Source: a virus
Lineage: Duplodnaviria > Caudoviricetes
IMG/VR virus record: IMGVR_UViG_3300025736_000033
Coordinates: 1 to 53,263 of that record
Length of the DNA: 53,263 nt
Reading direction: 5' to 3' (one strand)
Position 1 is the stretch's first letter. Each line of letters starts with the position of its first letter. The translations under genes and the position numbers were made by a program. Positions 2,142 to 53,263 of this stretch are shown here, piece by piece. The notes under the pieces are model-generated. The model made no database searches. It saw nothing but the letters and a program-made list of their open reading frames with translations, and was not told where the DNA came from.

Positions 2142-3677
2142 CTAATTTGTTAAAGCACCATACTTCTTAAGCCATTTTTCGTCACCCATTTTCTCACGCA
2201 GGACACGAAGCCGGTCCTCGACCTCTTTGTCAGTCTTGATCCCCTGCGACTCTGCTTGGGTTGAACCAGAGAACCTACGTGCGGCATTCTGAATCATGCC
2301 ATCGGTAACCTGCGATGCGGTCTTACCCGGCGTAACTTCAAGGGCAGGTGCAACGGCCTGTGGCCGAATACCACCTACGCCCTGTTGCGCTGGAGCGGCA
2401 GGTCTACGAACTTCAGGCGGCAAACTCGTTGGGTCCGGCTCTGCCGCAATCCTTACTCCAAGCGATTCATCAGCCTCACCGAAGAATGACTGAATCGATG
2501 TAACATGATCACGTAGATAACGCTGGCGGTCGGCCAACCCAGCGCGATCTGTAAGAGCCTCATCCTCTGGGAAAGCCCCCTCTTCATACGAGTTACGCCT
2601 AAGCCCTTCTACTTGTTTGCCACGCGAAACTAGCCCCTCGGTTTCTTTTATCTGCCGCTGTAAACTCGTCAATTCGTTGCGGAGCTGGCTATCGCTCATC
2701 AAAGAATAAAGCTCTTCACGGCTTGCGCTGGCATTTGCAAATCGGCCAGTACCCTCAGCCTTTATGATATCATCCCGAATAGAATCCATGCGTTTCGTAG
2801 ACGCTTCGGAGCTTAAGCCGCCCCGCTCAGCTTTTGCCCTCGCCGTCGCAATATCAACCGTATGCTTCTCCTGAGCCCGCGTCTCTCCGGCAGCCGCACG
2901 AGTACGCTGTGCGCCACGCTCTATAGCAGCGGCAGGTAAATCTGCGGCCTTGTCTTGAGCCTGCTGGATACCCAAGCCTCGCTGTGCGCCAGCCAGCTCC
3001 TGTTCTTGCGCAACGGCGCCAGTCTCTGCCCTGATGCCCAACGCGGACTGATCTTCAGCGGCTTGTCCTGTCCGGACACCAAGCTCTGCTGCACCAGCTT
3101 CAGCCACCTTGCCAGGAATGCCAGCATCGATCTTGGCTCCCGCAGAGAACTGATCAAGGGCAACGGTAGGATCCAGAGAGCCGCGGAAGATGGCATCGCT
3201 CGTGAAACCCTTACCGCCGCCGATTGGTTTGCCGTCAAACTCGATAGAATACACATTCTCGCTTACAGGCTGGCCATTCTTATCGACACCCTGCTGCACA
3301 TCAATGACAGTAATGTTGGGCTGAAACTCTTTAGGTAAACCCTGTCCTATCTGAGCACTTACCTGAGCTGCATCACCACCAGCATTAATCAAGCGAACGC
3401 CCTGATGTAACCGTTCAATGCTCAGGTCGTACAACTTAGCTTCGCGATCCTGCTGCCCCTGGTTGAAAGTCGCAGTATCGCGCTGATCCTTGAGTGCCGC
3501 ACGCCTTTCTTTGGCCGCATCCTGCCTGTCCTGACGCGTAGCACTGCGTTGCGCTGCCGTATCAGCCGCAGTCTGCCGCTTCTCCTGTAGATCCAATGCG
3601 TGATCACGTTGCCTTCGCTGTGTACCGCGTTCAAACCCTGCTGAAAATCCCCGCAATCCATATCCTATCGATGACAT
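2142..3677 (-). CDS. Putative DNA-ejection/internal virion protein
   Basis: 511 aa, Ala/Gln/Arg-rich helical composition, N-terminal GxGLxGFxxGFxxG followed by charged coiled coil, typical position before the largest internal protein. Confidence 0.55.
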   Translation of the reverse strand: MSSIGYGLRGFSAGFERGTQRRQRDHALDLQEKRQTAADTAAQRSATRQDRQDAAKERRAALKDQRDTATFNQGQQDREAKLYDLSIERLHQGVRLINAGGDAAQVSAQIGQGLPKEFQPNITVIDVQQGVDKNGQPVSENVYSIEFDGKPIGGGKGFTSDAIFRGSLDPTVALDQFSAGAKIDAGIPGKVAEAGAAELGVRTGQAAEDQSALGIRAETGAVAQEQELAGAQRGLGIQQAQDKAADLPAAAIERGAQRTRAAAGETRAQEKHTVDIATARAKAERGGLSSEASTKRMDSIRDDIIKAEGTGRFANASASREELYSLMSDSQLRNELTSLQRQIKETEGLVSRGKQVEGLRRNSYEEGAFPEDEALTDRAGLADRQRYLRDHVTSIQSFFGEADESLGVRIAAEPDPTSLPPEVRRPAAPAQQGVGGIRPQAVAPALEVTPGKTASQVTDGMIQNAARRFSGSTQAESQGIKTDKEVEDRLRVLREKMGDEKWLKKYGALTN

Positions 3678-40888: not shown

Positions 40889-41068
40889 CTACTCAATCCT
40901 CTCTTTCCGCTTGAGAAAAGCATATTGCTCATCTACCTCTGCCATAAACTCAACGCTCATGGGCTGATCCAGTACATCGGCCTGGTTTCGAAGGATATAC
41001 AGTTCCTCCTGACAGTTGGAGCAAACGCCGTTTGATGTCCTTCCACCGCATTCTGGGCAATAGCTCAC
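40889..41068 (-). CDS. Small zinc-ribbon protein (59 aa)
   Basis: GTG start, SYCPECGG...CSNC; overlaps upstream stop. Confidence 0.55.
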   Translation of the reverse strand: MSYCPECGGRTSNGVCSNCQEELYILRNQADVLDQPMSVEFMAEVDEQYAFLKRKERIE

Positions 41069-41340
41069 TCCCCTATCTCCTTATCACCGGTGTAGGGGGC
41101 TGACGCTTTTGCGCTGGTTTTGGTGTTGATTGGTGCTTCTTTGCCAGGAAAAACGAGCCAATCGCCAGTTACTTGTATTACCTTATGGCCCGGTTCACAC
41201 GTTGTCGTCCCAACATCGGCGCACGGCATAAGATCACCAACTATGCAACCACATTCGATTGTGGAGTCACACAGCCCTGTGTAGCCATTTTCTGTCAGCC
41301 ATGTCTCTGTTATCGTGCGTATTGTTTTGGGTTCGGTCAT
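41065..41340 (-). CDS. Cys-rich hypothetical protein
   Basis: 91 aa; GYTGLC...ECGC...LMPC...CEPG. Confidence 0.65.
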   Translation of the reverse strand: MTEPKTIRTITETWLTENGYTGLCDSTIECGCIVGDLMPCADVGTTTCEPGHKVIQVTGDWLVFPGKEAPINTKTSAKASAPYTGDKEIGE

Positions 41341-41549
41341 TTCCTCACCTCATAATGGGGACAACTGAATCCCTCTCCGAACATACAGCCCTCGTATCCG
41401 GGCAATGCAACATCCTTCCGCACATTCTTGTGATTGTTGGCCTTCTCCCCATTTGTCAGCGGGTTGCTACATTCCGCGAAATGGACTGCGCCTATCTTCA
41501 GCGTGTGTTGGAAATCCCATGTTAGGCATGTGTGGCATTCTGGCTTCAT
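41337..41549 (-). CDS. Cys-rich hypothetical protein
   Basis: Likely start MKPECHTC at 41549 (ATGA overlap). Confidence 0.55.
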   Translation of the reverse strand: MKPECHTCLTWDFQHTLKIGAVHFAECSNPLTNGEKANNHKNVRKDVALPGYEGCMFGEGFSCPHYEVRK

Positions 41550-41647
41550 GGCTTGCGCCCTCCGCTCCAGATCACCAGCCATTCTACCAGCGCCGCCAGC
41601 ACTATGAAGATGATTGCGCCGCCGAATATTATCTGTGATGGGGTCAT
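41546..41647 (-). CDS. Small single-TM peptide (33 aa)
   Basis: MTPSQIIFGGAIIFIVLAALVEWLVIW; ATGA overlaps on both sides. Confidence 0.45.
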   Translation of the reverse strand: MTPSQIIFGGAIIFIVLAALVEWLVIWSGGRKP

Positions 41648-41919
41648 TGTGTTGCCTGCTTCGCGACCTTATCAATATGCTTATACCACCGGCAAAGCCG
41701 CGCCTGCAACCTGACAAGGTAATCATAATCCGTGTGATAGCGGCAACAATAATGCATATAGCCCGTCTTAAAATCTGCATCATCTACTGGTCCACAGTCG
41801 CATCTGCTCTTTATTTTCTCGCGTGCTGCGTGATTATAGGCCGCATTTTTTGTAAAAAAGCGGCGTGACCCTGCGCGGTATACTTTTGCTTGCTCGCTGG
41901 TGACAACTGTGTTGCTCAT
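41644..41919 (-). CDS. Hypothetical protein
   Basis: 91 aa, AGGAGG RBS. Confidence 0.6.
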   Translation of the reverse strand: MSNTVVTSEQAKVYRAGSRRFFTKNAAYNHAAREKIKSRCDCGPVDDADFKTGYMHYCCRYHTDYDYLVRLQARLCRWYKHIDKVAKQATQ

Positions 41920-41927
41920 CCCTGCCT

Positions 41928-41951
41928 CCTAAAACTCTGCCACTTCATCTC
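41928..41951. repeat. 24-bp direct repeat (second copy 42479-42502) flanking Sm-like/RS cassette
   Basis: cctaaaactctgccacttcatctc vs cctaaagctctgccacttcatctc. Confidence 0.9.
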
Positions 41952-41986
41952 CACATAATAAATATACACAACCCACTAACACACAA

Positions 41987-42193
41987 TTACCAACTCCTAC
42001 TTCCACTCCAACTCCAACTCCTACTTCCACTCCAACTCCAACTTCCACTCCAACTCCAACTCCTACTTCCACTCCAACTCCAACTCCTACTTCCACTCCT
42101 ACTCATACTCCTACTCCTACTCCAACTCCCACTCCTACTCATACTCCTACTCCTGCTCCTACTCCATCTCCTGCTATTAACTGGCATCAACAT
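41987..42193 (-). CDS. Ser/Arg/Trp dipeptide-repeat peptide
   Basis: 68 aa, Ser at every second position; only open minus-strand frame over the hexamer repeat; overlaps upstream stop. Confidence 0.55.
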
Positions 42194-42444
42194 TTTGCCG
42201 GACCCCAGCTCTCAATGCCTGCCAGCATAACGCGCCACGGAGACGGCAACGACTGTGCGTCAGACCAATCTCCGGTGTCGAGCGGGCCTGTCTCATAAAC
42301 CAGCTTTGCGTCTGCCAACTCGATATGGTTTGCATTTACGCCTGCGAGCGTGCCGGTGTAAATATACACTCCGCAAAACGTTGTAATCTTTTCGCCCAGC
42401 ATTGCATCCATTCCACCGTCGTCTGTCTCTACTACTCGTTTCAT
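42187..42444 (-). CDS. Sm/LSm-like small beta-barrel protein
   Basis: 85 aa; [25 protein letters not shown] resembles the Sm1 motif; AAGGAG RBS. Confidence 0.6.
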
Positions 42445-42535
42445 TCTGCTATCTCCTTGTTGCGTTGGGGGTTATTCCCCTAAAGCTCTGCCACTTCATC
42501 TCGATTATCCCGCTGTCCTCATTCATCTCTACCTC

Positions 42536-43447
42536 CTAAAACCCCGGTCCTGTTATGTCATCATCATCATCATCAGGGGGTATCCAGTCCTCGGTTGTGC
42601 CTGTCTGGTATGTTCGCTCGGTGATCCGCATGGTCTTACCGTCGAAATCACACCGGACCTCATGGCCCCCACCATCCTTTGTACTTTTCAGGCACTTGAC
42701 CCGCAGTAGGTTGCTGTCTTCGTCATCACCGCGCATCAGACCGAACACTATGCCGGCGCTTTCCTCAATCTCACCGGCATTCCGCGCTGAGTGCAGTCCT
42801 ATCTCACCTGTATTGCCGTCTTCGCCGCTTCTGTGGACCTGTGAAGCACAGATTATGATGGTGTTAGTGGCCTTAGCTGTGCGCTTGAGCTCCTGCGCTG
42901 CCTGGGCTATCCGTTCGTAACGCTTGGCGCCTTTGCTGTTCATCAGCCCAATGTAATCGACTATGACTATCACCGGTTTGTGCCCGTACTTCTCTGGGTA
43001 GTCCACTTCGATGATCTCAGACAGTGCCGTTTCGTCTATTCGGCTTTCGTCACATACAATGATGTGTTCCAGCCCTTCGAAGTAGGGACGTAGCCTTTCA
43101 AGATCCTCGTGGGTGCTGGATTGCTTGTAGTCGGCCTGTATGCTCTTGCAATCCACGCCTGAGTGCATCGCGGCGAACCGTTCGTAGGCCAGTGTGCCGG
43201 GTAGCTCCATCTCCATGAACAGCACAGGGAGCGGGTTAGCGGCCTTGGCTATCGCCTGTAATACGGCTGTTTTCCCCGTTCCCGTGTCACCTAAGAAGAA
43301 TATCAGCTCACCGCGTAACGCCGGGCGCATCTTTTCTCCTAACGATGGGAGCCACTTGCCCCAGTCGAGTGAGAACTTCTGTGAAACCAGCGAGTCAATC
43401 ATGTACTGCTGGTGTAGGTCTTCAAGGTTTTTCAGTTCGTGGGTCAT
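42536..43447 (-). CDS. DnaB-like replicative helicase (ATPase domain only)
   Basis: 303 aa; GDTGTGKT, FMEMEL, IVDYIGL, CASQ, GEIEESA. Confidence 0.85.
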   Translation of the reverse strand: MTHELKNLEDLHQQYMIDSLVSQKFSLDWGKWLPSLGEKMRPALRGELIFFLGDTGTGKTAVLQAIAKAANPLPVLFMEMELPGTLAYERFAAMHSGVDCKSIQADYKQSSTHEDLERLRPYFEGLEHIIVCDESRIDETALSEIIEVDYPEKYGHKPVIVIVDYIGLMNSKGAKRYERIAQAAQELKRTAKATNTIIICASQVHRSGEDGNTGEIGLHSARNAGEIEESAGIVFGLMRGDDEDSNLLRVKCLKSTKDGGGHEVRCDFDGKTMRITERTYQTGTTEDWIPPDDDDDDITGPGF

Positions 43448-44073
43448 AGTGCTAATACCTCTTGCTGTAGGCGAATCGCAGCTATCTCGCAGTACTTCTC
43501 TTCCAGCTCAATGCCGATGCACTTGCGCCGTAGGTCTTTCGCGGCCCGTAGCGTTGTGCCTGAACCCATGAACGGGTCAAGGATTGTTTGCGCCTCGGGG
43601 TAGAACCCCATACACCACTTCATCAATGCTTCTGGTTTTTGTGTCGGGTGAACACGCGGAATCCCGCGCTCCGACTTTCTATTAAACCCATCCCAGTAAT
43701 GCCGAAACATCCGGTCAACGCCCTTATCTGAACACCATGCAAGCTCACAGTCGGCTTGGTCACGCTCTGGTATAACGCCCTCGCGCTTGTCCCACACGAG
43801 CCATCTTCCCCCGTCAGGAATCCTCGCGTGGTAATGGTTTGCGCCCCAGACAATCATTGGGCGCGGTAGGAATGCCGGATCGAACGGAGTATCATCACCA
43901 GCTACCGCATCAATTACCGTGGGTGCGTTTGCGTAATTCCCCCCGCCATGCTTGTACGCTATCCCATAAGGCGGGTCAGTCAGCACAAGGTCAACCTTGT
44001 CCAGCGTTGGCAGTACCTCCCGGCAATCCGCGTGGAATATGGTTGCATAATCGTCTTTGTAGTATGGCTTCAT
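43444..44073 (-). CDS. N6-adenine/N4-cytosine DNA methyltransferase (beta class)
   Basis: TDPPY, HPTQKP, LDPFMGSGTT, GIELE. Confidence 0.92.
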   Translation of the reverse strand: MKPYYKDDYATIFHADCREVLPTLDKVDLVLTDPPYGIAYKHGGGNYANAPTVIDAVAGDDTPFDPAFLPRPMIVWGANHYHARIPDGGRWLVWDKREGVIPERDQADCELAWCSDKGVDRMFRHYWDGFNRKSERGIPRVHPTQKPEALMKWCMGFYPEAQTILDPFMGSGTTLRAAKDLRRKCIGIELEEKYCEIAAIRLQQEVLAL

Positions 44074-44873
44074 CGCTGTACGAAGCCTCCCGTTGGTTTT
44101 GCTGGTAGCCAGCCTCGGGCGCGGTCAACTTCACTCTGCCAGTTATTGAGTACTGTTTCAAGGTTGAGCCGCTTCGGATGAAATTCGTCCTTCACCACCG
44201 TATGCAGATAATATTTTTCCACTACGTCAACATCATCTTTTACGAGTGGCCGCAACATCGCAAGCGATTCTTCTTCGTAGATTGTCCAGAGGGTATAATC
44301 CTTGCGGTTAAACCATTTGCCGATCCGAACCATGAGAGGGCTGTTTATCTCAACACGCTTTTTACGTTTGTCAGACTCCTTCACGATGGCCCGAACCTTC
44401 TTCTCTTTCCCCTCCCCCTTCTCCTTCCCATTCCCCTTCAGGCTTTCGAAGTCCTTTGTACGTTCTTTATAAGCCGTTTGGAAGCGCTTTATAAGTGAAG
44501 AGTTCTTGTCGTAGAACTCCTGCCACCACGGAAAGTCTGAATCTTCTAAAGCAGAGAGGGTTCCCAGCACGCTTTTAACCATATTTATGTGTGGAACACT
44601 AGGAAACTGCCTAGCAAAATAGCCTGGAACCCATATCCAGCCTGTCTTCTCGTCGTACCTGAGTTTAACGCCAAGCACTTTGAAAGCCCTTTCTAGGTCT
44701 TTTCTCTCTAATCGGGTTTCGTGTGTAGCTTTCCTATAAGAAAACCTATAAGCACCTATGCAAGTTACATCGCTGTTGCTGATGCAGTACAAGTAAAATG
44801 CCAAGGGGTTAAGGTCTTCAATGTGGTCGAAGTCGGGGTCATTCCAATACGTAGGTTCTATCATCGCTTTCAC
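44070..44873 (-). CDS. Putative replication initiator
   Basis: 267 aa; YWNDPDF..L...FYLY N-terminal winged-helix-type motif, KGNGKEKGEGK linker; upstream of helicase. Confidence 0.65.
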   Translation of the reverse strand: MKAMIEPTYWNDPDFDHIEDLNPLAFYLYCISNSDVTCIGAYRFSYRKATHETRLERKDLERAFKVLGVKLRYDEKTGWIWVPGYFARQFPSVPHINMVKSVLGTLSALEDSDFPWWQEFYDKNSSLIKRFQTAYKERTKDFESLKGNGKEKGEGKEKKVRAIVKESDKRKKRVEINSPLMVRIGKWFNRKDYTLWTIYEEESLAMLRPLVKDDVDVVEKYYLHTVVKDEFHPKRLNLETVLNNWQSEVDRARGWLPAKPTGGFVQR

Positions 44874-44916
44874 CTTTTATAGCTCCAAGCCTCTGTCCGT
44901 CATACCCAAAACAAAG

Positions 44917-45050
44917 AAAAAGATCCCCGCCGGTGATGAGACCAGAACACACCATAGGCGTGTGACGGGGATCGTATTATTAAGTAGGAACTCGTGTGTC
45001 TGTATCTCATCATGTTGAGAAGAATACCACGACCAATCCCAAGTTGTCAA
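44917..45050 (-). promoter_or_regulatory. Sigma70 promoter plus structured attenuator-like leader
   Basis: TTGACA (45045-45050)-18-TATTCT (45021-45026); stem gatccccg/cggggatc (44922-44929/44966-44973) followed by minus-strand TTTTT. Confidence 0.7.
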
Positions 45051-45127
45051 CCTCTTCTGCAAAGCCCCCAGAGAACACGCAACGGGACGCAAGACCAAAC
45101 GCTGCAATGTTCTCGTGAGGGCCATTG

Positions 45128-45298
45128 TTAATCCTTCAGGAACAGATTTGTCTTCTCCATGCATACGCCCTCTAGGAGCTCAACACGGTCGTTCTCTACC
45201 ATAGCCGTACAGTGAGGGTGGCAATTCTCGTTCAGCCACGCTATCAACGGCTTAGACGCCTTCAGCAGTTCATCTCTTTGTTCTTTCGTCAGTATCAT
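45128..45298 (-). CDS. Hypothetical protein
   Basis: MILTKEQRDE...PLIAWLNENCHPH; AGGAGG upstream. Confidence 0.6.
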   Translation of the reverse strand: MILTKEQRDELLKASKPLIAWLNENCHPHCTAMVENDRVELLEGVCMEKTNLFLKD

Positions 45299-45299
45299 C

Positions 45300-45818
45300 C
45301 TATCCCCTCCTATTCCAAGGCTCAACCCATTCAAGGCCAAGCAATTCAAACAAGTATTCTTCCTCTGGTACTGGATGGATCTGACCCAAATGAGTCAGGT
45401 TCCCATCCACACCATGAAAGTTCTTACCTACCCAGCCTCGGGCCAGTACCTTGTGCGAGTATTCCGCTGGTCCGGTACGTATTGCTAACTGATAGCCCCA
45501 GTTGATCGGAGTAGCTGTGAATATATCTACCTTGATCCCTGTAGATGTCAGCCGTTGCATGTACCTGCCCTTAACAGCATCGCCCTTCAGTGTCTTCATG
45601 CAATCAACAGCAGCTATGAAGCGAATATCACGCTCTATTCCCACCACCTCCCCCAACAGGTCCAGTATAGGGATTGTCTTCGGAATACATACTATCTCTA
45701 TGTCGCCCGGATTTGGCTTACGCCTTCGTACACTCCCTGCAATAGCGATCCTGTCGCAACCTGGTTCTATCAGGTAAACAAGGTGCTCTGCTGCCCCTTT
45801 GGCTTCATCTAAGTTCAT
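45300..45818 (-). CDS. Minimal family X DNA polymerase (palm+thumb)
   Basis: 172 aa; IAGSVRR, GDIEI, VDIF, RTGPAEY, EEEYLFELLGLEWVEP. Confidence 0.85.
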   Translation of the reverse strand: MNLDEAKGAAEHLVYLIEPGCDRIAIAGSVRRRKPNPGDIEIVCIPKTIPILDLLGEVVGIERDIRFIAAVDCMKTLKGDAVKGRYMQRLTSTGIKVDIFTATPINWGYQLAIRTGPAEYSHKVLARGWVGKNFHGVDGNLTHLGQIHPVPEEEYLFELLGLEWVEPWNRRG

Positions 45819-45830
45819 ATCCTATCCCTC

Positions 45831-46205
45831 CTATACTGCTAGCAAATACTGGTTCGATTCTTGCGCTGGTTCTTCCCTTGTTAGAGTACGTCTGTTCATG
45901 GCTGTGATGGCAGACCGTACCTGCTCCAGCCTGGCACTGCTCCTGACAGCCCACTTATACAAAGGCCGGCCATGCTTCTGCTTTTGGGTAGGCTTCACCC
46001 GCTCTTCTGTCTGATACAGCCCGCAAGCTCTAAGCCTCTTGAAACAGCACCCGATTAGGTTGGGCTCCATCGGTGGGTGCTTGATATCTTCAGCCGTACA
46101 CCAGCCCTTCCCCCACGCAGCATCCAGCAAGTCCCTGAGTACTTCCATCGCCTCACGCTCATGCTTGTTCAGTGTCCCGGTCAGCCAGCTTGGTAGGTTA
46201 GTCAT
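45831..46205 (-). CDS. Hypothetical (possible winged-helix) protein
   Basis: Start MTNLP with AAGGGGGG RBS. Confidence 0.55.
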   Translation of the reverse strand: MTNLPSWLTGTLNKHEREAMEVLRDLLDAAWGKGWCTAEDIKHPPMEPNLIGCCFKRLRACGLYQTEERVKPTQKQKHGRPLYKWAVRSSARLEQVRSAITAMNRRTLTREEPAQESNQYLLAV

Positions 46206-46283
46206 TGTTACCCCCCTTATCGCATTCATTGCCTCTTAAAACCTTCTGAATCCCTGAACCCTTATCTGTACCTGTCTTTTCCA

Positions 46284-46949
46284 TTACCACGGCTTTGCAG
46301 CTTCATAGGCTGTCTTGTAAGCACCTGTTGAACCGTAGGAATACGGCGAGATAGGCTCTGGCTCATCATATTCAAACTCGTAGTCGTTCAGCATCTCTAT
46401 CGCCTTCTCCAGTACCATAATCTCTTTCTCAGCAGATCCTATGGCTACGGTCAGCCACTGGATGGTGTCGGTCAGGCATGTTTTCAGGAACGAACCATCA
46501 GTATTACTGCATTTCAGCCTCTTATTCACACCTTTAATGAACTTGATCTGCTTCTTCATGCCCTTGATCTTGTCCTTCTCACCTATGATACCGTTCCGGA
46601 ACGTATCGTTTATGCTCCCGATCACATCCATCTTCGTAACACGTTCGCCTGACAGCTGGATGATCGACATGAGTGAGCCGGCCATCTTCTGACAAGCCAG
46701 TTGCTCGGTATTGTCTACTTCACGCTGACCAGTCCGGTCATAGTAAGCACGCTCCTGTGAATTGCTCAGTATCTCGTAAGCTATGGCTATCTGTACGAAC
46801 TTCTCAGCAGCACCGCCATCAGGGTTCTGATCTGGGTGATATTTGAAAGCCAGCTTACGGTAAGCGGCCTTGATTACAGCATCGTCTGCGTCCCTTGCTA
46901 CTCCCAGCACCTCGTAAGGGTCAGGTGGTCTAACGATTGGAGTGCTCAT
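46284..46949 (-). CDS. J-domain (DnaJ-like) protein
   Basis: DPYEVLGV...[17 protein letters not shown]...AYEILS..RAYYD. Confidence 0.9.
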
Positions 46950-47130
46950 TGGTATTAACATCCCTTCCCAGTGCCTTGCGTGCTTGTATAATGAACCAGT
47001 AAGCAGTGTGATGTTTGGCCAATGGTCCCTGATCTGCCATCTTTATCAGTGCATCCTCCAGTGCTGTGATCTTACGCTTCAGGTTGAGTACTTCTGTGCG
47101 GTGGGCTATCAGTGTCAGGTTGCGGCTCAT
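46930..47130 (-). CDS. Hypothetical protein
   Basis: 66 aa, AAGGA RBS. Confidence 0.55.
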
Positions 47131-47143
47131 TTGGTTGCCATCC

Positions 47144-47341
47144 TTATATCCTATACCCGTGTATGTGGTTTTTCCTTTGATAGCAGCCCGACGCTAGTTC
47201 CATCCAATCGCTGCTGCCGTTTACAATATGGCCCATCTTACCGACGCTTGCCCATCGAATGCTGTCGCATTTTGGGCATCGCTTAGGCCGCACGGTGAAT
47301 GTTTCCCAATCATGCCCGCACTTATTACAATGCCTATCCAT
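47144..47341 (-). CDS. Zinc-ribbon protein
   Basis: MDRHCNKCGHDW...PKRCPKCDS; GGAGG RBS. Confidence 0.6.
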   Translation of the reverse strand: MDRHCNKCGHDWETFTVRPKRCPKCDSIRWASVGKMGHIVNGSSDWMELASGCYQRKNHIHGYRI

Positions 47342-47552
47342 TGGACACCTCCCGCAACTCACGGTGCTGCTTACAGTGATCTGCACAGCAGTACCCGCCA
47401 TTGTGGGTGTGCCTGACTTCACAGCCTGGTAGTAGGCAGTCGCGTTCCTTACTGGGTGCTGGGTGGTAGTTGTGAATTGGTGGTGGCAACTTGCCCCAGA
47501 GTGCGTATGTGAACATTGCCGAAGCCACTGCGTGTACTGTTTTCTTACTCAT
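47334..47552 (-). CDS. Cys/His-rich hypothetical protein
   Basis: 72 aa, CLLPGC...YCCADHC. Confidence 0.6.
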   Translation of the reverse strand: MSKKTVHAVASAMFTYALWGKLPPPIHNYHPAPSKERDCLLPGCEVRHTHNGGYCCADHCKQHRELREVSNG

Positions 47553-47830
47553 TTGCCTATCTCCTGATTAGGCACATAATAAGCATCAACAAGATCTATT
47601 ATGGTCGCAAGTTGATGGTTGATAGTTGCATGGAATAACTGACATTCCATGTCAATTTGATTTGGCCGTTGGTTATGCCGGCCGTTGTAGTAGTCCACGG
47701 CAGCATCCCTGCGCTCTTTGAAGTCGCTCGGCTTGGCGCAGGTTTTTGGTCCGAACTTAATCATGTACCCACCAAGTATCAATGCTTCTAATATTGGCTG
47801 GTAGATTTTATAGTGTGTGCTCTTACTCAT
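47549..47830 (-). CDS. Hypothetical protein
   Basis: Start MSKSTH at 47830 with AAGGA RBS. Confidence 0.6.
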   Translation of the reverse strand: MSKSTHYKIYQPILEALILGGYMIKFGPKTCAKPSDFKERRDAAVDYYNGRHNQRPNQIDMECQLFHATINHQLATIIDLVDAYYVPNQEIGK

Positions 47831-47840
47831 GGTCTTGCAT
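47816..47840. repeat. 25-bp inverted repeat of 38896-38920
   Basis: atgcaagaccatgagtaagagcaca on + at 38896-38920 and on - at 47816-47840. Confidence 0.92.
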
Positions 47841-47855
47841 CCTTTCATTGAGTTA

Positions 47856-47910
47856 CCAGTCTCTCCTGGCTGTCACGCCTTAATAACCGGTGGCGTCCCC
47901 GGTATTGAGG
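47856..47910 (-). ncRNA. Candidate pseudoknotted intergenic RNA element
   Basis: Stem AAUACCGG/CCGGUUAUU, loop ACGCC complementary to downstream GGCGU, then CCAG-GAGAGA-CUGG hairpin. Confidence 0.4.
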
Positions 47911-47927
47911 GTATATATGTTTTTGGA

Positions 47928-48419
47928 TCAGCTAAATTTCATAGGCTTTTCCTCCCATGTCATTTCTTTCAGACGTTCGTATGATGCCCGGTAATCTATC
48001 TTGCCCTTATCGTGACAGTGATCTGTAGCCCACTGTGCCTGCTCTGGCTTCTTCTCGCGCATCCAATCTATGAACGCGGCCACTACTGCCATGCTTGAGC
48101 TATGTGCGGCGAGTGTGTTGCCCATCGTGTGATGCGACGGACATAGGATTACAATGTTTTCCTCGATGTTGTGGCGGTGTACCCCGCTCCTGCTTTTCTC
48201 GATTAGATGATGGCCGCAAGTCCCGTTGACTGAGCAACAGACCTCGCATGGATGGCCCTTGGTCAGCCGCGTCAATTCCGTATCGGCCAATTTCTTCCAG
48301 TGCTTATGGTTGCGCGGATAAGACTTTGGCTTTGCAGGCTTTTTCTTAGCCTTCTTAGGCTTACGAGCTATACCAGAACGCTTCACTCCGACAGCTCCGT
48401 TACCGCAGTCCTCAGACAC
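47928..48419 (-). CDS. NinG/Rap-like HNH-type nuclease
   Basis: KLAD..., CEVC, GHH....RS, NIVILCPSHH. Confidence 0.65.
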   Translation of the reverse strand: MSEDCGNGAVGVKRSGIARKPKKAKKKPAKPKSYPRNHKHWKKLADTELTRLTKGHPCEVCCSVNGTCGHHLIEKSRSGVHRHNIEENIVILCPSHHTMGNTLAAHSSSMAVVAAFIDWMREKKPEQAQWATDHCHDKGKIDYRASYERLKEMTWEEKPMKFS

Positions 48420-49414
48420 TTCACAGCACCATTCAGGATACCACGTAGCTGCTGAACAGCCTTCAGTGCAACATCACTTGAAACTGGTGGGATCTGTAGA
48501 GCGCAGAGATCAGTAGCCAGAGATTCAAGCTTGTCCTTGTCCGGAGCAGCGAGTGCTTTCTGTTTGGCTTCCTTCTCAGCTTTGAGTCTAGCTACTTCAG
48601 CATCCTTCTCTGCCTGCTCAGAAGCAAGACGTAACCGTTCCTCTTCGAAGTCCCGGTCCTGTGCTTCCTTCTTCATACGTTCAGCTTCTGCCTCTACTGC
48701 CTTCTTCTCAGCTTCCAGCTTCTTACGAGCCAGCTCTGCCTTCTTCAGTTCTGCCTGGGCTTTCTTCTGTGAAGCCAGATTAGCCGCCTTGAGCTTGGCG
48801 TTCTCAGCTTCTATTCGCTCACGTTCCGCTTTTTCAGCAGCACGGGCCTCTTCGGCAGCCTTTTCCTTGGCTTCCTTCTCAGCTTCTATGCGCCTAGCTT
48901 CTGCCTGTTCGGCTTCCTTGGTGGCTTTGTAGCGTAGCTGGAATGTCTCGTGTAGCTTGCTGAAGTCGTCTTCGCTCATCTCGCCCAGATTGAAGTGCTG
49001 ACAGTCAACACCCAAAGCTTCCAGCTTAGATGTACGTTCGGCAACAATCATAAAGGCACGTTCAGCCTCAAGCCTCTTTATAAAGTTCTCTTGCTCCTGC
49101 AAGCCTTCTTCGACAGGAACAATAACGAACTTGATAACATTCGCCATGCCATCAATCGCCTTGCCCTCACGTAGACAACTCTCTTTAAGCCTCTTCCTTG
49201 TGTTTTCTACGTCACTTCTGATCTTCTTCAGCCCAAGCCGTGTGACCCTGGCTGTCTGCATTGCGTCTATGTCATCAACGCTCGTGACCTTAACGGTCTT
49301 GGCAGTTTCCAACAGCCCCTGCACTTCTTCCATGAAGGGGTTGAAGGTTACTGCCAGTGCGTTGTGCTTCTCAGGCTCTAACCCTGATTCGTATTTCTGC
49401 ATCTCTTCGGTCAT
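48383..49414 (-). CDS. Coiled-coil protein of recombination module
   Basis: 343 aa; RKRLKE..LREGKAIDG, long EAK-rich coil, APDKDKL. Confidence 0.75.
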   Translation of the reverse strand: MTEEMQKYESGLEPEKHNALAVTFNPFMEEVQGLLETAKTVKVTSVDDIDAMQTARVTRLGLKKIRSDVENTRKRLKESCLREGKAIDGMANVIKFVIVPVEEGLQEQENFIKRLEAERAFMIVAERTSKLEALGVDCQHFNLGEMSEDDFSKLHETFQLRYKATKEAEQAEARRIEAEKEAKEKAAEEARAAEKAERERIEAENAKLKAANLASQKKAQAELKKAELARKKLEAEKKAVEAEAERMKKEAQDRDFEEERLRLASEQAEKDAEVARLKAEKEAKQKALAAPDKDKLESLATDLCALQIPPVSSDVALKAVQQLRGILNGAVKCLRTAVTELSE

Positions 49415-49455
49415 CGCATTATCCCTATGCTACTTTGTTGCAGTTTTCGTTCAGA

Positions 49456-50169
49456 TCAGAACGGGAAATTCTCTTCCGCTTCAGGCTCACCACTTACCGG
49501 ATCAATACCCGCTGGCGGTTCTGACTGTTCAGGACCAGCAGGAGCAACGTCACGTATAATCTCAGGCTCGTTAGTTGCTTCTGGTATCCTGTTCGATGCT
49601 TCCTTGCGTTCCCCATATTCCTTGGACTCTGCAATAATCTCGCGTAGCCAAGTAGGCAGATCAGCAGGGAGCTCGTCTGTCTTGCAGTCATCAAAGCTGA
49701 AGTACACCAGCGGATTCTCTGACTTTGGTGCTTCCATCCCACCGGGCAGTCCCATGATAGCCTTGACATTGGAGTACACCTTCTCACCATCTGCCGATGT
49801 GTTGTGAATCACCTGAAGCTGGCAAGCTGCTCCTAGTACAGCCTTCATATCAAACCCATCAAGGTCAGCCTTCGTGAACGCTTTGCCGCGCCATGCTTCC
49901 AGGTCTTTCCGCAGTGAAGCCTTCTTGTGCAGGCTCTGTGTGTACTTATTGCTGATAGCACGTGGGAGATTAACCATTGTCCCATCGCGTTCAAACTCAG
50001 CACGTACATGAGGAAGTTCCCATGTTACCATTACTTCACGCACGTACTTGTCGTAGTGCCTATTGTGCTGAGTGCCAAGATCCACAAGGCTGTAACATAC
50101 CGCTACATGCACGCCTTCCGGTATCGGGTCATAAGTCTTGCCGCCTTCTGCTTTTACTATTAGTCCCAT
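49456..50169 (-). CDS. Putative single-stranded DNA-binding protein
   Basis: 237 aa; PEGVHVAVC...DLGTQ, SLHKKASLRKDLEAWRG, acidic tail ending FPF. Confidence 0.65.
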   Translation of the reverse strand: MGLIVKAEGGKTYDPIPEGVHVAVCYSLVDLGTQHNRHYDKYVREVMVTWELPHVRAEFERDGTMVNLPRAISNKYTQSLHKKASLRKDLEAWRGKAFTKADLDGFDMKAVLGAACQLQVIHNTSADGEKVYSNVKAIMGLPGGMEAPKSENPLVYFSFDDCKTDELPADLPTWLREIIAESKEYGERKEASNRIPEATNEPEIIRDVAPAGPEQSEPPAGIDPVSGEPEAEENFPF

Positions 50170-50173
50170 CTTC

Positions 50174-50539
50174 CTACTCCTTCTTCCCTACTGGTGTTTT
50201 ATCCAACTTCGTGTACTGTTCAAATACTTCCTTGAATCCCAATGATGGTCCCGTTGCCATCCCTACTGTTGCATCTACCGTGTCAATACCTACAACAACA
50301 TGATTGGCTATCTCATATAAGTGAGTCATACCAGCAGATAATTCTGCGATAAACTCTTCCTTAGTGTATGGCCTGTATGAAGCCTGTGCCACTACTCGGT
50401 AATCACAATGTGTCCAATCCCATGAAGGATCATCTTCACGGCTCCATGATCGTGCATCCGTGATAGCGCCAGATGATTCTATCCGCGAGCCAAGCCCAAA
50501 AGATTCCATGATAGCGATACGTTCTGCAAGTGATTTCAT
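50174..50539 (-). CDS. Hypothetical protein
   Basis: PSWDWTHCDYRV motif; TAATG coupling to exonuclease. Confidence 0.6.
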   Translation of the reverse strand: MKSLAERIAIMESFGLGSRIESSGAITDARSWSREDDPSWDWTHCDYRVVAQASYRPYTKEEFIAELSAGMTHLYEIANHVVVGIDTVDATVGMATGPSLGFKEVFEQYTKLDKTPVGKKE

Positions 50540-51429
50540 TATGCGTTCAGATCCCTCCATTTCGGTAACACCATCTCCATCACTTCAGGACTATGACCAG
50601 GCCATACACCTGTCTCAGTACATTCCTTGATAGTCTTGAGCGCGTTCTGGTATGCATCGCGCCCGTTCATCAGGTAGCCACGAGGATGTGTGGTTTCGTT
50701 GGCTTCATCATACGCTGCCAGCCCATCACATACACTTACCAGATGAGGCCATGCGCTTTCTACGAAGATGAAACTAAATGGGCAGGGTGTCTGCACTGGG
50801 TCTATCCCGTGCAGGATGCTCCAGCCATCACCGTAGAATGCTACCTGTGCATCCAAGCCATGATCGTATGCTGCCCTTACTGCTATGTACGGGTCCGACT
50901 TGCCCGTAGTCTTCAGGTCAGCCATCTCACAAGGATCATCACCGGCCATATCAGATCTCGCCTTGCACCTGATACCTGTTTCCGGATCAGTCCAGACAAA
51001 GGACACTTCACGGTAAGGTAGCCGGTCAAGGATAGCCTTGGCTTCAGCATGAGCATTCACGTTCTCAGCTACACGGAGAGCTGAAGAGATACCGTCCTTC
51101 ATCTCCGACCATTCGCCAGCAGGTAGGTATGTAACTTCTGGGTTCTCAGCACAGAGTAGTTCGTATTCTGCACCAGCCCTTCGCTTTATTGTAGAAGGCA
51201 GTGGAAAGTACTCATCCTGCTTGTCAGGTTCGAGCACAGCAGAGTGAGCCCGAGTCCCGAAGGTCATAGCCTTGGTTGCCACCATAGGCTTCTCAAGCCT
51301 GCCCTTGTAATGAGCCGCCGTGAGCCCACGGCATAGAGGCGTCAGGCTCGAGCGTGATACGAATGGCAGAGCGAAGTATTCTTCCGCTGGCATGTCGTAG
51401 TAGATACCGTCTTTAATTTCTTTGGTCAT
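50539..51429 (-). CDS. RecE/exonuclease VIII-like PD-(D/E)XK nuclease (DUF3799-like)
   Basis: YFA...SRSSL, FGTRAH, EVSFVW...CKARSD, DLKTT, QVAFY. Confidence 0.85.
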   Translation of the reverse strand: MTKEIKDGIYYDMPAEEYFALPFVSRSSLTPLCRGLTAAHYKGRLEKPMVATKAMTFGTRAHSAVLEPDKQDEYFPLPSTIKRRAGAEYELLCAENPEVTYLPAGEWSEMKDGISSALRVAENVNAHAEAKAILDRLPYREVSFVWTDPETGIRCKARSDMAGDDPCEMADLKTTGKSDPYIAVRAAYDHGLDAQVAFYGDGWSILHGIDPVQTPCPFSFIFVESAWPHLVSVCDGLAAYDEANETTHPRGYLMNGRDAYQNALKTIKECTETGVWPGHSPEVMEMVLPKWRDLNA

Positions 51430-51488
51430 TAGTTATCCTCCTAGAAATTCTCCGCGTGAGTAAGTATGCGCGGCCCACTGTTTGCTAA

Positions 51489-51695
51489 TCAGCCATCGCC
51501 AGCGCCATAGCCAGAGCCATAGCCAGAGCCATCGCCATAGCCAGAGCCATAGCCAGAGCCATCGCCAGAGCCATCGCCAGCGCCATAGCCAGAGCCATAG
51601 CCAGAGCCAGAGCCATAGCCAGAGCCAGAGCCATCGCCATAGCCAGCGCCAGAGCCATAGCCAGATGCTTTGCCCCGCATGTCTACTTTTTCCAT
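51489..51695 (-). CDS. Gly/Ser/Tyr/Asp dipeptide-repeat peptide
   Basis: 68 aa, Gly at every second position; overlaps upstream stop. Confidence 0.6.
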   Translation of the reverse strand: MEKVDMRGKASGYGSGAGYGDGSGSGYGSGSGYGSGYGAGDGSGDGSGYGSGYGDGSGYGSGYGAGDG

Positions 51696-52057
51696 ATCGC
51701 CACCCCGTCAATACTCGCCTTTGCCGCCGCTGTTGCGGGAATCACTTCGATAGCCTCCGTCAGCGTGATTGAGCTAACCTCGCAAGGGAACTTACAATCG
51801 CTAGGACTCTTCACACCCTCCATAGCCAACTGCGACAGCGTAGCCGCGCCCTTCCAAAACCAAAGCCGCCGTGCATTAACCAGTACTACCTCTTTGCCAG
51901 AACGAGATTTAAGATACCCAGCATGTACGCCCGCTGAATATGTACGGACAATCACATAGTCCATACCATCCACGCTTTCAGCCTTTGTCGGCTGAACGCT
52001 ATCCGCTGGAACGTACTTCTTGCCGTTGATGTCTATTACGTCTGCCGTCATGTTCAT
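51683..52057 (-). CDS. DUF6948-like small beta-barrel (Sm-like) protein
   Basis: 124 aa; YVIVRTYSAGVHAGYL...VVLVNARRLWFW.GA..LSQLA.EG; AAGGAGG RBS. Confidence 0.7.
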   Translation of the reverse strand: MNMTADVIDINGKKYVPADSVQPTKAESVDGMDYVIVRTYSAGVHAGYLKSRSGKEVVLVNARRLWFWKGAATLSQLAMEGVKSPSDCKFPCEVSSITLTEAIEVIPATAAAKASIDGVAIWKK

Positions 52058-52172
52058 GCCTTAGCCTCCTTGTTTGTTGATTGCACATCATTACCCAGCA
52101 AGCCAGCATGGGGGTCACTGTCTACCGAAAGAGTCTTATCAGTGATAGCTCCTTCGTAAATAATGGTATCCG

Positions 52173-52379
52173 TCATGCCAGCTCGTCAGGGTTGCTTAAT
52201 TTATCCTGCTCAGCTTCTTCAGTAGAGAGGATGTTGAATATTAAAGGTCTGAGTAATTCGGATGTGCTGTTAATCCAAGACCGCTGTTCAGACAGTGCAT
52301 CTAGTCTAGCCCAGACGGATGCTCTCATGCCGATTGATCTCTGTTCGATAGGGTCTATAGGTTTGGGCTGTGCTTTCAT
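52173..52379 (-). CDS. Ribbon-helix-helix-like regulator
   Basis: RSIGMRASVWARLDALS...STSELLR; likely start 52379 just after promoter. Confidence 0.55.
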   Translation of the reverse strand: MKAQPKPIDPIEQRSIGMRASVWARLDALSEQRSWINSTSELLRPLIFNILSTEEAEQDKLSNPDELA

Positions 52380-52388
52380 CTGATTGAG

Positions 52389-52417
52389 AGAATAGCTCCA
52401 CATGAATCCGGTGTAAA
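52389..52417 (-). promoter_or_regulatory. Sigma70-like promoter heading the recombination/replication operon
   Basis: TTTACA (52412-52417)-17-TATTCT (52389-52394). Confidence 0.6.
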
Positions 52418-52504
52418 CAACTTTCTTCATTTATTTAACCAGAGCATTTGTGGGTTCTGCACGGGCCTATCGTGTATGGGGTAGGCCAAGGTATACCCCG
52501 ACAG

Positions 52505-52533
52505 CAAGAAGCCCACGCTAGGGGAGCGTGGGC
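52505..52533 (-). terminator. Intrinsic terminator after amidase gene
   Basis: gcccacgct/agcgtgggc stem followed on minus strand by TTCTT. Confidence 0.6.
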
Positions 52534-52583
52534 CTTGCTTGCTGACCTACTGGAGAGAGATGAACTCCAGCGGGATAGTCAGG

Positions 52584-53144
52584 TCAGGTAGCGGGGGTGT
52601 TGGTGGAGGATGCGAAATATTCCTTGCTGCCCATTCCGTCGTTTAAGTGCTTAAATATGCCTTCCGGGGTCCACGTCCAGTCAGCCTCTGCAAATTCAGC
52701 GCATAGCCCGTAGCAGATTTTAACGTCAAGCTCGTTGCATGTTACGCGGTTAGATTTGGCCGATAACTTTTTCAGGAAGTCTGAGTCACGCCGCTTCCAA
52801 AGCTTGACCCATGCCGAGTAGATCAGGAGCTGGCCCCAGTCGTAGCCGGCACCGTGTTCTAGGAGTGCGCGACGGTACATGCTGGATCTCTGCGGCGGGA
52901 GCGTGTGGAGCTCCACCGTATGATACCTGTTGATTTTGCCTGCCTCCATAGCACGGTCGATATGCTCGCGTGGTGTCCAAACTACGCCCTCATCCAGCGA
53001 CTCAACAAGCAGGGTCACATGCGGAAATTGGAACTCGATGCCCGTGTGGCTGATAGCGGAATCCTCAAGGTACATGATGGCCTTCGACATACGCGCTGTG
53101 CCCGCTGTCCAGAATACGGAAACCTTGTCTATCTTGTAGTCCAT
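52584..53144 (-). CDS. Permuted papain-like (NlpC/P60, YiiX/C92) amidase
   Basis: Start MDYKID at 53144; SHTGI, VES..EGV, GAGYDW, TCNEL, TPEGI. Confidence 0.75.
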   Translation of the reverse strand: MDYKIDKVSVFWTAGTARMSKAIMYLEDSAISHTGIEFQFPHVTLLVESLDEGVVWTPREHIDRAMEAGKINRYHTVELHTLPPQRSSMYRRALLEHGAGYDWGQLLIYSAWVKLWKRRDSDFLKKLSAKSNRVTCNELDVKICYGLCAEFAEADWTWTPEGIFKHLNDGMGSKEYFASSTNTPAT

Positions 53145-53263
53145 TAAATCACTCCATGGATTTTCATCAGCCCGTACACCGTGGCAACAGATAAGACGCA
53201 AAGCACACCGCCTGTGCCCGTTGCCTTGATCGACCTGCCGCCCGGCAATGGAATCGTGATACC
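53144..53263 (-). CDS. Partial gene, C-terminal TM segment (alternative 3' end of 5637-6056 gene)
   Basis: GITIPLPGGRSIKATGTGGVLCVLSVATVYGLMKIHGVI*, TAATG coupled to amidase. Confidence 0.6.
   Translation of the reverse strand, partial: GITIPLPGGRSIKATGTGGVLCVLSVATVYGLMKIHGVI

Follow-up and report, generated by a model that had tools for sequence, protein, structure and literature searches.

Bacteriophages are already known to encode LSm-like proteins, the T4 GoF family being an example (PMC12152347). A phage-borne repeat system, VIPR, pairs the RAMP protein Vipr with a vrRNA, and its description lists pentanucleotide motifs in all types, with the form YNNGG, or NNNGG, YNNNG and NNNNG (bioRxiv 10.64898/2026.04.26.720920). 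The present work concerns the virus record IMGVR_UViG_3300025736_000033 (Caudoviricetes), analysed as the whole IMG/VR record of 53,263 bp (hereafter the window; estimated completeness 85%), and two gene cassettes found on it. In each cassette, a gene for a small protein with a predicted Sm-like fold is followed by a gene for a peptide in which a constant residue alternates with a variable one. Specifically, an 85-amino-acid (85-aa) protein precedes a (Ser-x)n peptide in cassette 1 and a 124-aa protein of the Pfam family DUF6948 precedes a (Gly-x)n peptide in cassette 2.

The 85-aa protein resembles the Sm/LSm/Hfq proteins in its predicted N-terminal helix and bent five-stranded sheet (Z 10.7 to Lsm chains). 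It differs in that the Pfam LSM/Hfq models do not match and the 85-aa family is acidic, while DUF6948 carries extra helices and an N-terminal hairpin; furthermore, no known member of this fold family has been described with a coupled dipeptide-repeat gene. The arrays share with VIPR their occurrence in phages, an invariant GG(Y), hypervariable positions and an adjacent small protein gene, sometimes with many arrays in tandem. The entropy in our arrays was 0.0–0.3 bits at constant positions against 1.51, 1.09 and 1.01 bits at variable ones. In contrast to VIPR, the period here is 6 and not 5, the arrays come with an ATG, a Shine–Dalgarno sequence, a leader, a stop and six Ser codons, and both adjacent proteins examined match Sm/LSm and not RRM/RAMP. 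VIPR has an invariant structured 3′ tail; here a shared tail sequence is present, which folds no better than its shuffles (z +0.79, −1.37 and −0.85). The module is not a member of VIPR, because neither pentanucleotide units in the arrays nor a RAMP fold in the two adjacent proteins was found here.

Alternating dipeptide polymers read from a hexanucleotide repeat are also known from C9orf72 GGGGCC expansions, whose Arg-rich products are described as binders of nucleic acids and low-complexity proteins. Compared with what is described there, the phage polymers are short (23–142 aa), ATG-initiated and encoded by conserved genes with mixed second residues, and are the result neither of pathological expansion nor of non-ATG translation. 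Silk fibroin (Gly-X)n and FUS-type [G/S]Y[G/S] sequences have a composition that favours beta-sheet stacking or phase separation; the Gly-x peptides resemble them in alternating Gly with Ser, Tyr or Ala but are Asp-rich, tiny and presumably cytoplasmic. Lastly, the eukaryotic proteins SmD1, SmD3 and LSm4 also tie an Sm fold to an Arg-containing dipeptide repeat, although their tail is fused and Tudor-bound whereas the phage repeat is a separate gene product. Searching the literature returned nothing on DUF6948, on an Sm-fold gene paired with a dipeptide-repeat gene or on a phage ‘fibroin heavy chain-like’ protein.

Results and discussion

The pairing recurs behind two protein families

The 85-aa family was sampled at 82 loci, comprising 80 of its 270 metagenome relatives, one IMG/VR locus and the window. 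Downstream ORFs (open reading frames) were counted only where at least 150 nt followed the gene, with an ORF start between −45 and +450 nt. These pairing counts include duplicate contigs (L001/L051, L062/L063, L098/L099, L106/L108, L107/L109, L118/L120, L022/L023 and L029/L030 among them, L numbers denoting loci), which were removed for the codon and entropy counts. A (Ser-[Gly/Arg/Trp])n ORF followed the 85-aa family gene in 56 of 59 loci, the exceptions being L096, L097 and L100, and the repeat was already visible at the contig end in 15 of the 23 truncated loci. The same was found for DUF6948, sampled at 44 loci of which 39 had enough DNA: a (Gly-[Ser/Tyr/Asp])n ORF followed in 37 of these, the two exceptions (L029 and L030) had four repeat units fused onto a truncated gene, and all 5 truncated loci ended within the repeat. 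The pairing goes beyond chance, since 56/59 and 37/39 loci carry the same kind of ORF, and it holds behind both families at 42–99% protein identity to the window copies in more than 100 loci.

In the reverse direction, at least 120 IMG/VR stretches matched six (TCT NGG) units, and among the 80 examined 31 had an upstream ORF of the 85-aa family. In several loci (L135, L138, L162, L169, L184, L190, L196, L206 and L209) the Ser-x array was instead preceded by a third group of proteins of about 87–115 aa with an ASWVADSGRF-like motif, whose relation to the 85-aa family was weak or undetectable. For six (GGC KMT) units at least 117 stretches matched and 80 were examined; DUF6948 lay upstream in 38 of the 57 loci with at least 400 nt of upstream sequence. 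A sequence-only reading of the window had proposed a recurring two-component system, and its proposal is supported by a pairing that recurs in both search directions and by homologues that nearly always retain their low-complexity neighbour. The DUF6948 pair is also present in the cultured phage Iodobacter phiPLPE, where the array is unannotated, in seven Pectobacterium phages, of which Ymer was inspected and has the ORF labelled hypothetical, and in Ralstonia phage NK-7, where the ORF is annotated as ‘fibroin heavy chain-like protein’.

The search of a genome collection yielded only one contig of a metagenome-assembled genome (Thermoguttaceae) and one partial match. Contigs often stopped within or just after the arrays, with less than 150 nt past the gene in 23 of 82 and 5 of 44 loci for the two families; evidently the repeats break short-read assemblies and will be under-represented in gene catalogues. 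Tandem batteries of 7–14 Ser-x peptide genes were found at L131 (14), L149 (8), L199 (7) and L205 (7). Within these batteries every gene has the common short leader but a repeat string of its own; ATGA overlaps or individual AGGAG sites are seen in many, and no Sm gene stands between them.

The two cassette types were seldom found together. Among the stretches fetched, a Gly-x array was present in 2 of 80 Ser-x loci and a Ser-x array in 1 of 80 Gly-x loci, while a Ser-x cassette occurred in one of five DUF6948-bearing records, the complete record G006 (loci L129 and L038); the record of locus L001 had no DUF6948. From their distribution the two cassettes appear to be parallel versions of one design and not parts of one machine, because the two types rarely share a contig. 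G006 is a second, unrelated complete phage genome with both cassette types.

The repeats look translated

Five independent signatures argue that the repeats are translated. Ser is the fixed codon in all 59 distinct Ser-x arrays, and each of the six Ser codons dominates in some array (TCT 25, TCG 17, AGC 9, TCA 5, AGT 2 and TCC 1); TCN and AGY share no uniting RNA-level rule. In the MLMPxN leader (n = 25) the Pro codons vary synonymously (CCA 11, CCT 7, CCG 6 and CCC 1), as do the Asn codons (AAT 12 and AAC 6). Distant relatives have free-standing peptide ORFs with their own ATG at gaps of up to about 290 nt after the gene, AGGAG precedes each of the eight tandem peptide genes of L149, and stop codons come soon after the arrays. 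At L024, L028 and L044 the Gly-x genes are non-repetitive in DNA, yet alternate residues remain Gly, encoded by a mixture of codons. Lastly, interruptions of the arrays kept the frame in 257 of 260 junctions (64/64, 105/105, 39/42 and 49/49), including 17 shifts of 3 mod 6, and the three out-of-frame junctions lay within another repeat in L018. Translation of the repeats, on which the sequence-only reading depended, is thus backed by Ser codon usage, by leaders, by own starts and AGGAG sites and by frame-keeping interruptions.

An open frame across such repeats is no proof by itself. In cassette 1 only the Ser-x frame is stop-free, the third frame having 12 stops. The Gly-Val/Gly-Ala frame, which is the frame of the upstream gene and in which the variable base is synonymous, was rejected as it holds 2 TGA codons in the window, and in nearly all relatives one or two stops precede it and no in-frame ATG is close by. 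In cassette 2 all three sense frames of the array are stop-free and an antisense frame is open as well (96-aa ORF, 51482–51772, +); the Ala-Leu/Met and Trp-Leu/Arg frames were rejected, having no starts and not being kept across codon variants.

No tRNA gene was found in the window, and there was no general tRNA enrichment near the arrays at 60 of the 80 Ser-x and 60 of the 80 Gly-x pattern loci. Two individual loci had such genes, L026 with two tRNA-Ser genes (GCU and UGA; 3321–3490) between the DUF6948 gene and the Gly-x ORF, and L160 with a tRNA-Arg(UCU) directly after the array.

Both upstream proteins are predicted to adopt Sm-like folds

The AF2 model of the 85-aa protein, computed from an alignment, had a pLDDT of 79.9 and showed one helix followed by five strands (H11-15, E19-24, E27-36, E40-50, E63-73 and E79-82). 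Aligned to yeast Lsm with VIA-align it gave a Z of 10.7 and an rmsd (root-mean-square deviation) of 2.1 Å over 70 of 75 target residues, and 401 of 952 aligned chains reached a Z of at least 8; among the matches listed, the best 50 were Sm/LSm throughout. The best 50 Foldseek matches were likewise Sm/LSm without exception. The 85-aa protein is therefore predicted to have an Sm/LSm fold. The DUF6948 protein, modelled in the same manner (pLDDT 92.7), has an N-terminal hairpin and additional helices. Its top Foldseek matches were exclusively Sm/LSm (E 5.5e-3 to 4e-2), and in a Foldseek-independent VIA search of 48,161 representative chains the top 37 rows were solely Sm-fold chains, namely Sm/LSm, the LSm domains of EDC3/Tral, Gemin and a NatC subunit. 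The best Z was 6.9 (rmsd 3.2 Å, 73 residues aligned) with zero chains at Z 8. DUF6948 is predicted to form an Sm-like barrel with additions, which we call divergent because Z reaches only 6.9, and the case for its fold is weaker than that for the 85-aa protein. The predicted models (AF2, Foldseek and VIA-align) support the Sm-like character that had been read from the sequence pattern of both proteins.

Neither window protein matched the Pfam LSM/Hfq models at E ≤ 1, and these models recognised Sm1/Sm2 sequence motifs in neither of them. PF01423 matched in none of 60 family members and LSM14 in one of 60 (E 0.042), while the sole PDB match by sequence profile was an archaeal Sm-like protein (E 0.98). 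The nearest named ESM Atlas clusters were LSM, Phage_Hfq and Gemin7, with scores of 0.79–0.84 that serve as leads only. The 124-aa protein matched Pfam DUF6948 (PF22253) at 112.1 bits against a gathering cut-off of 27, with residues 32–116 covering profile positions 1–85 of 85, and a six-frame search agreed. The 85-aa protein had no family in Pfam, PHROG, NCBIfam or PADLOC, the searches of the latter two returning no matches; its family is nevertheless large, with 156 close homologues and, at E ≤ 0.001, 436 representative clusters.

The two upstream proteins had been described as sharing no obvious identity, and hhalign agreed, giving probabilities of 1.3% and 3.2%; a sequence link between the 85-aa family and DUF6948 was accordingly rejected as not significant. 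At L129 (1399–1979) the Ser-x partner is a 114-aa protein whose N-terminus resembles the N-terminal motif of DUF6948 (probability 54%) and whose core resembles the 85-aa family (probability 67%). This protein hints at a kinship of the two families and is suggestive only.

Net charge was negative in all 41 aligned members of the 85-aa family (median −5; pI about 4.7), and given this acidic pI, unaided RNA binding by the family seems less likely. The DUF6948 proteins had a median net charge of 0, with 15 of 38 negative and 16 positive.

Composition and variability of the arrays

Variation within the arrays was concentrated at a few positions of the 6-nt unit. In Ser-x arrays the within-array entropy was 1.51 bits at unit position 4, and in Gly-x arrays it was 1.09 and 1.01 bits at unit positions 4 and 5, the other positions not exceeding 0.28. 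The second residue was G, R or W in 1253 of 1356 Ser-x units and S, Y or D in 988 of 1251 Gly-x units. The resulting peptides are 23–142 aa in length with conserved leaders of 6 to 11 residues. The Ser-x peptide of the window has a net charge of +13 and a pI of 12.0, and Ser-x peptides were basic in 46 of 47 cases (median +11). The Gly-x peptide of the window has a net charge of −4 and a pI of 4.1, and 31 of 33 Gly-x peptides were acidic.

At the RNA level, no fold better than shuffles was found in the tails (the z values being those given above), and no family was matched in a search of Rfam. Promoter-like and terminator-like sites in the window were at shuffle level (13 vs 12.0 and 12 vs 8.0, respectively), and none adjoins the arrays.

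Genomic context of the two cassettes

Nearly all genes of the window lie on the minus strand. The ORF list placed all four ORFs on that strand at the coordinates that the sequence-only reading had given (Table 1), and the length of 68 codons, the −1 frame and the dipeptide periodicity that it had claimed for both peptide ORFs were borne out, as was their overlap with the upstream stop, which measures 7 nt in cassette 1 and 13 nt in cassette 2. The ATG of both peptide ORFs is at 2 mod 3 relative to the frame of the upstream gene. Both arrays are built on a 6-nt unit, for which Tandem Repeats Finder reported periods of 12, 18, 24 and 42, and its 32 rows held no further long array in the window.

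Table 1 Positions of the cassette genes, arrays and flanking repeats in the window
Feature	Position	Strand	Basis or remark
Gene for acidic 85-aa protein, predicted Sm fold	42187..42444	-	ORF; no Pfam or PHROG family
Gene for basic 68-aa (Ser-[Arg/Trp/Gly/Met])n peptide, MLMPVN leader	41987..42193	-	ATG overlaps upstream stop
Hexanucleotide array (AGT NGG)n, repeat part of Ser-x gene	41990..42171	-	Tandem Repeats Finder scores 192-231
Gene for 124-aa DUF6948 protein; predicted divergent Sm-like barrel with N-terminal hairpin and C-terminal helices	51683..52057	-	
Gene for acidic 68-aa (Gly-[Ser/Tyr/Asp/Ala])n peptide	51489..51695	-	ATG within last codons of DUF6948 gene
Hexanucleotide array (GGC KMT)n, repeat part of Gly-x gene	51491..51665	-	Tandem Repeats Finder scores 217-224
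24-nt direct repeat, copy upstream of cassette 1	42479..42502	-	repeat search, 96% identity
24-nt direct repeat, copy downstream of cassette 1	41928..41951	-	repeat search, 96% identity
Short tail after Gly-x array	51449..51480	-	near-identical to tail after Ser-x array of relative L047 (alignment)

Both cassettes are located in an early replication/recombination block, the 85-aa ORF directly after a DnaB_C helicase gene and the 124-aa ORF immediately upstream of a PDDEXK nuclease gene. A Pfam scan of ten neighbouring window proteins gave DnaB_C, N6_N4_Mtase, DnaJ, DUF3799 and the pol-beta thumb, with five unassigned or weak. The thumb domain is a weak match to that of DNA polymerase beta in a small protein (45300–45818) of the early block. 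The same block encodes the DnaJ-domain protein (PF00226, 1.2e-23; 46284–46961), and the closeness of a phage J-domain protein to aggregation-prone peptides could be coincidental or meaningful. The region 41000–53263 had no megablast match in 50,697 phage records.

Cassette 1 is bracketed by a 24-nt direct repeat, the 17-nt core of which occurs exactly twice in the window. In L047 the 24-nt repeat sequence stands in front of another, tandem copy of the 85-aa gene, and at L047, L048 and L072 the array is followed by such a second copy. Because of the bracketing repeat and these second copies, the whole cassette seems to duplicate or move as a unit. When positions 41930–42186 of the window were aligned with 2755–3010 of L047, the differences in the array and the tail were mainly C-to-T on the coding strand, with shares of 24/47 in the array (AGC units becoming AGT) and 13/21 in the tail; in the 85-aa gene next to them the share was only 6/40. 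The pattern resembles a signature of deamination that is local and strand-specific, and an exposed non-template strand may be its source.

Proposed function and alternative explanations

We propose, at a probability of about one half, that the cassettes are translated pairs of an Sm-fold protein and a repeat microprotein in two phage families, in which the Sm-fold protein acts as partner or chaperone and the polyionic peptide as effector. As read from the sequences, the design appears to be a small Sm-fold protein gene followed by one or more microprotein genes, each with a leader and a hypervariable dipeptide repeat. Since the microprotein gene usually starts before the Sm-fold gene has ended, coupled and stoichiometric synthesis is suggested. 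The features of a chaperone–client or antitoxin–toxin-like pair are present, as the small genes of the window are co-oriented with overlaps of 7 and 13 nt and the Ser-x module shows charge complementarity; we favour the proposal because of the charge patterns of the partners and the overlapping starts. The Sm-fold protein, probably oligomeric, would bind and retain the polyionic peptide of its own cassette, possibly along with RNA. The peptide would be the effector, which early in infection might coat nucleic acids as an extended two-faced beta-strand or low-complexity polymer, or alternatively might build a beta-rich or condensate-like assembly. Its fast-changing residues would mirror conflict with hosts or competing phages.

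Several observations weigh against this proposal. No recognisable member of the 85-aa family lay upstream in 49 of the 80 Ser-x pattern loci, and the DUF6948 proteins, at a median net charge of 0, are not charge-complementary to their peptides. Variation within the arrays is almost solely residue-changing, with synonymous positions near-frozen (≤0.31 bits), which is unusual for ordinary coding sequence and resembles the layout of a guide RNA. The variable codon of Ser-x units ends in G in 1287 of 1356 units and NGG makes up about 90% of these codons, though Arg and Gly have others; moreover, GG recurs every 6 nt in both array families. One explanation at the protein level is that, in arrays evolving through the duplication of units, only NGG codons allow a switch between Trp, Arg and Gly by one base change.

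The main rival is that the arrays act as RNA, the Sm-fold protein binding the hexamer-repeat transcript, the hypervariable positions forming a noncontiguous code or a sponge and the peptide being incidental or a second use. We consider this unlikely. It would agree with Sm/LSm/Hfq being an RNA-binding fold family, with a GG that is invariant at each 6 nt while one or two positions are hypervariable among frozen neighbours, with the conserved flanks around tandem array batteries and with the one short tail common to both array types in this phage lineage. The repeats of VIPR phages, short, GG-containing and hypervariable at NN, are moreover described as DNA-targeting guides, but there they are pentanucleotide and bound by a RAMP protein (bioRxiv 10.64898/2026.04.26.720920). 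RNA recognition does not account for a constant triplet that always encodes Ser from both codon boxes. The ATG and AGGAG sites, the synonymously varying leaders, the prompt stops and the indels within arrays, which are multiples of 3, all speak for a peptide product, while the acidic 85-aa family (pI about 4.7) and tails that have no significant fold (z −1.37 to +0.79) and no Rfam match offer little to an RNA function. We would give a similarly low chance to the broader idea that the hypervariable positions form a programmable recognition code, as an RNA guide or as a peptide strand. In guide form, a transcript of 6-nt period on an Sm-fold oligomer would constitute a second, RAMP-independent VIPR-like system; in peptide form, the alternate residues (R/G/W or S/Y/D/N) would read successive bases of a competitor nucleic acid. 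Either form, if true, would amount to a new principle by which phages in conflict with one another target specific sequences.

A role of the peptides as precursors made on ribosomes or as products akin to bacteriocins, with the Sm-fold protein as leader-binding, export or immunity partner, seems improbable: short conserved leaders with variable cores, batteries of 7 to 14 tandem peptide genes (L131, L149, L199 and L205) and a Trp/Arg-rich composition that recalls cationic membrane-active peptides all count for it, but the leaders are merely 6 to 11 residues long, the cassettes sit in the early replication/recombination block and the Pfam scan of ten neighbouring window proteins turned up neither a modifying enzyme nor a protease or transporter. 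A programmed −1 frameshift could in principle fuse the repeat to the Sm-fold protein as a dipeptide-repeat tail, like the eukaryotic Arg-Gly tails. Sm proteins with such tails exist (SmD1, SmD3 and LSm4), the peptide is encoded in the −1 frame of the upstream gene in both cassettes and a G AAA AAG stretch lies at the junction of cassette 2. This explanation has an even smaller chance of being correct, as no conserved slippery heptamer was seen at the junctions inspected and many relatives (L009, L017, L044, L083 and L103–L124) have separate ORFs past the stop with their own ATG and in some cases a Shine–Dalgarno sequence. Given these separate ORFs and the tandem peptide genes without an intervening Sm gene, frameshift fusion was rejected as the general mode. 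Least credible of all is that neutral simple repeats prone to slippage, or errors of assembly, account for the arrays and that their frames are open by chance. Many contigs do end inside arrays (23/82 and 5/44 loci with less than 150 nt after the gene), and cassette 2 is open in three sense frames and one antisense frame; however, in more than 100 loci the arrays are found at one and the same place after genes of two protein families, Ser and Gly are retained via different codons, and cultured phages with finished genomes carry such arrays.

Conclusions

If the pairing of Sm-fold protein and repeat microprotein is functional, phages own a common and compact module that makes natural dipeptide-repeat polymers. 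Such polymers are otherwise studied mainly as pathological neuronal products or as silk-like materials, and in this case they come paired with a protein from an ancient family of RNA-binding folds. The module is abundant, with at least 120 and at least 117 IMG/VR stretches for two narrow DNA patterns and 436 clusters of one partner. In practical terms, its arrays break metagenome assemblies and are often left unannotated by gene callers, as in phiPLPE. The module would also provide the first functional context for DUF6948. Cultured phage–host pairs allow the question of peptide, RNA or both to be addressed, which has become pressing since the discovery of VIPR. Fast-varying peptides, in batteries of up to 14 genes, would be the signature of an arms-race effector.

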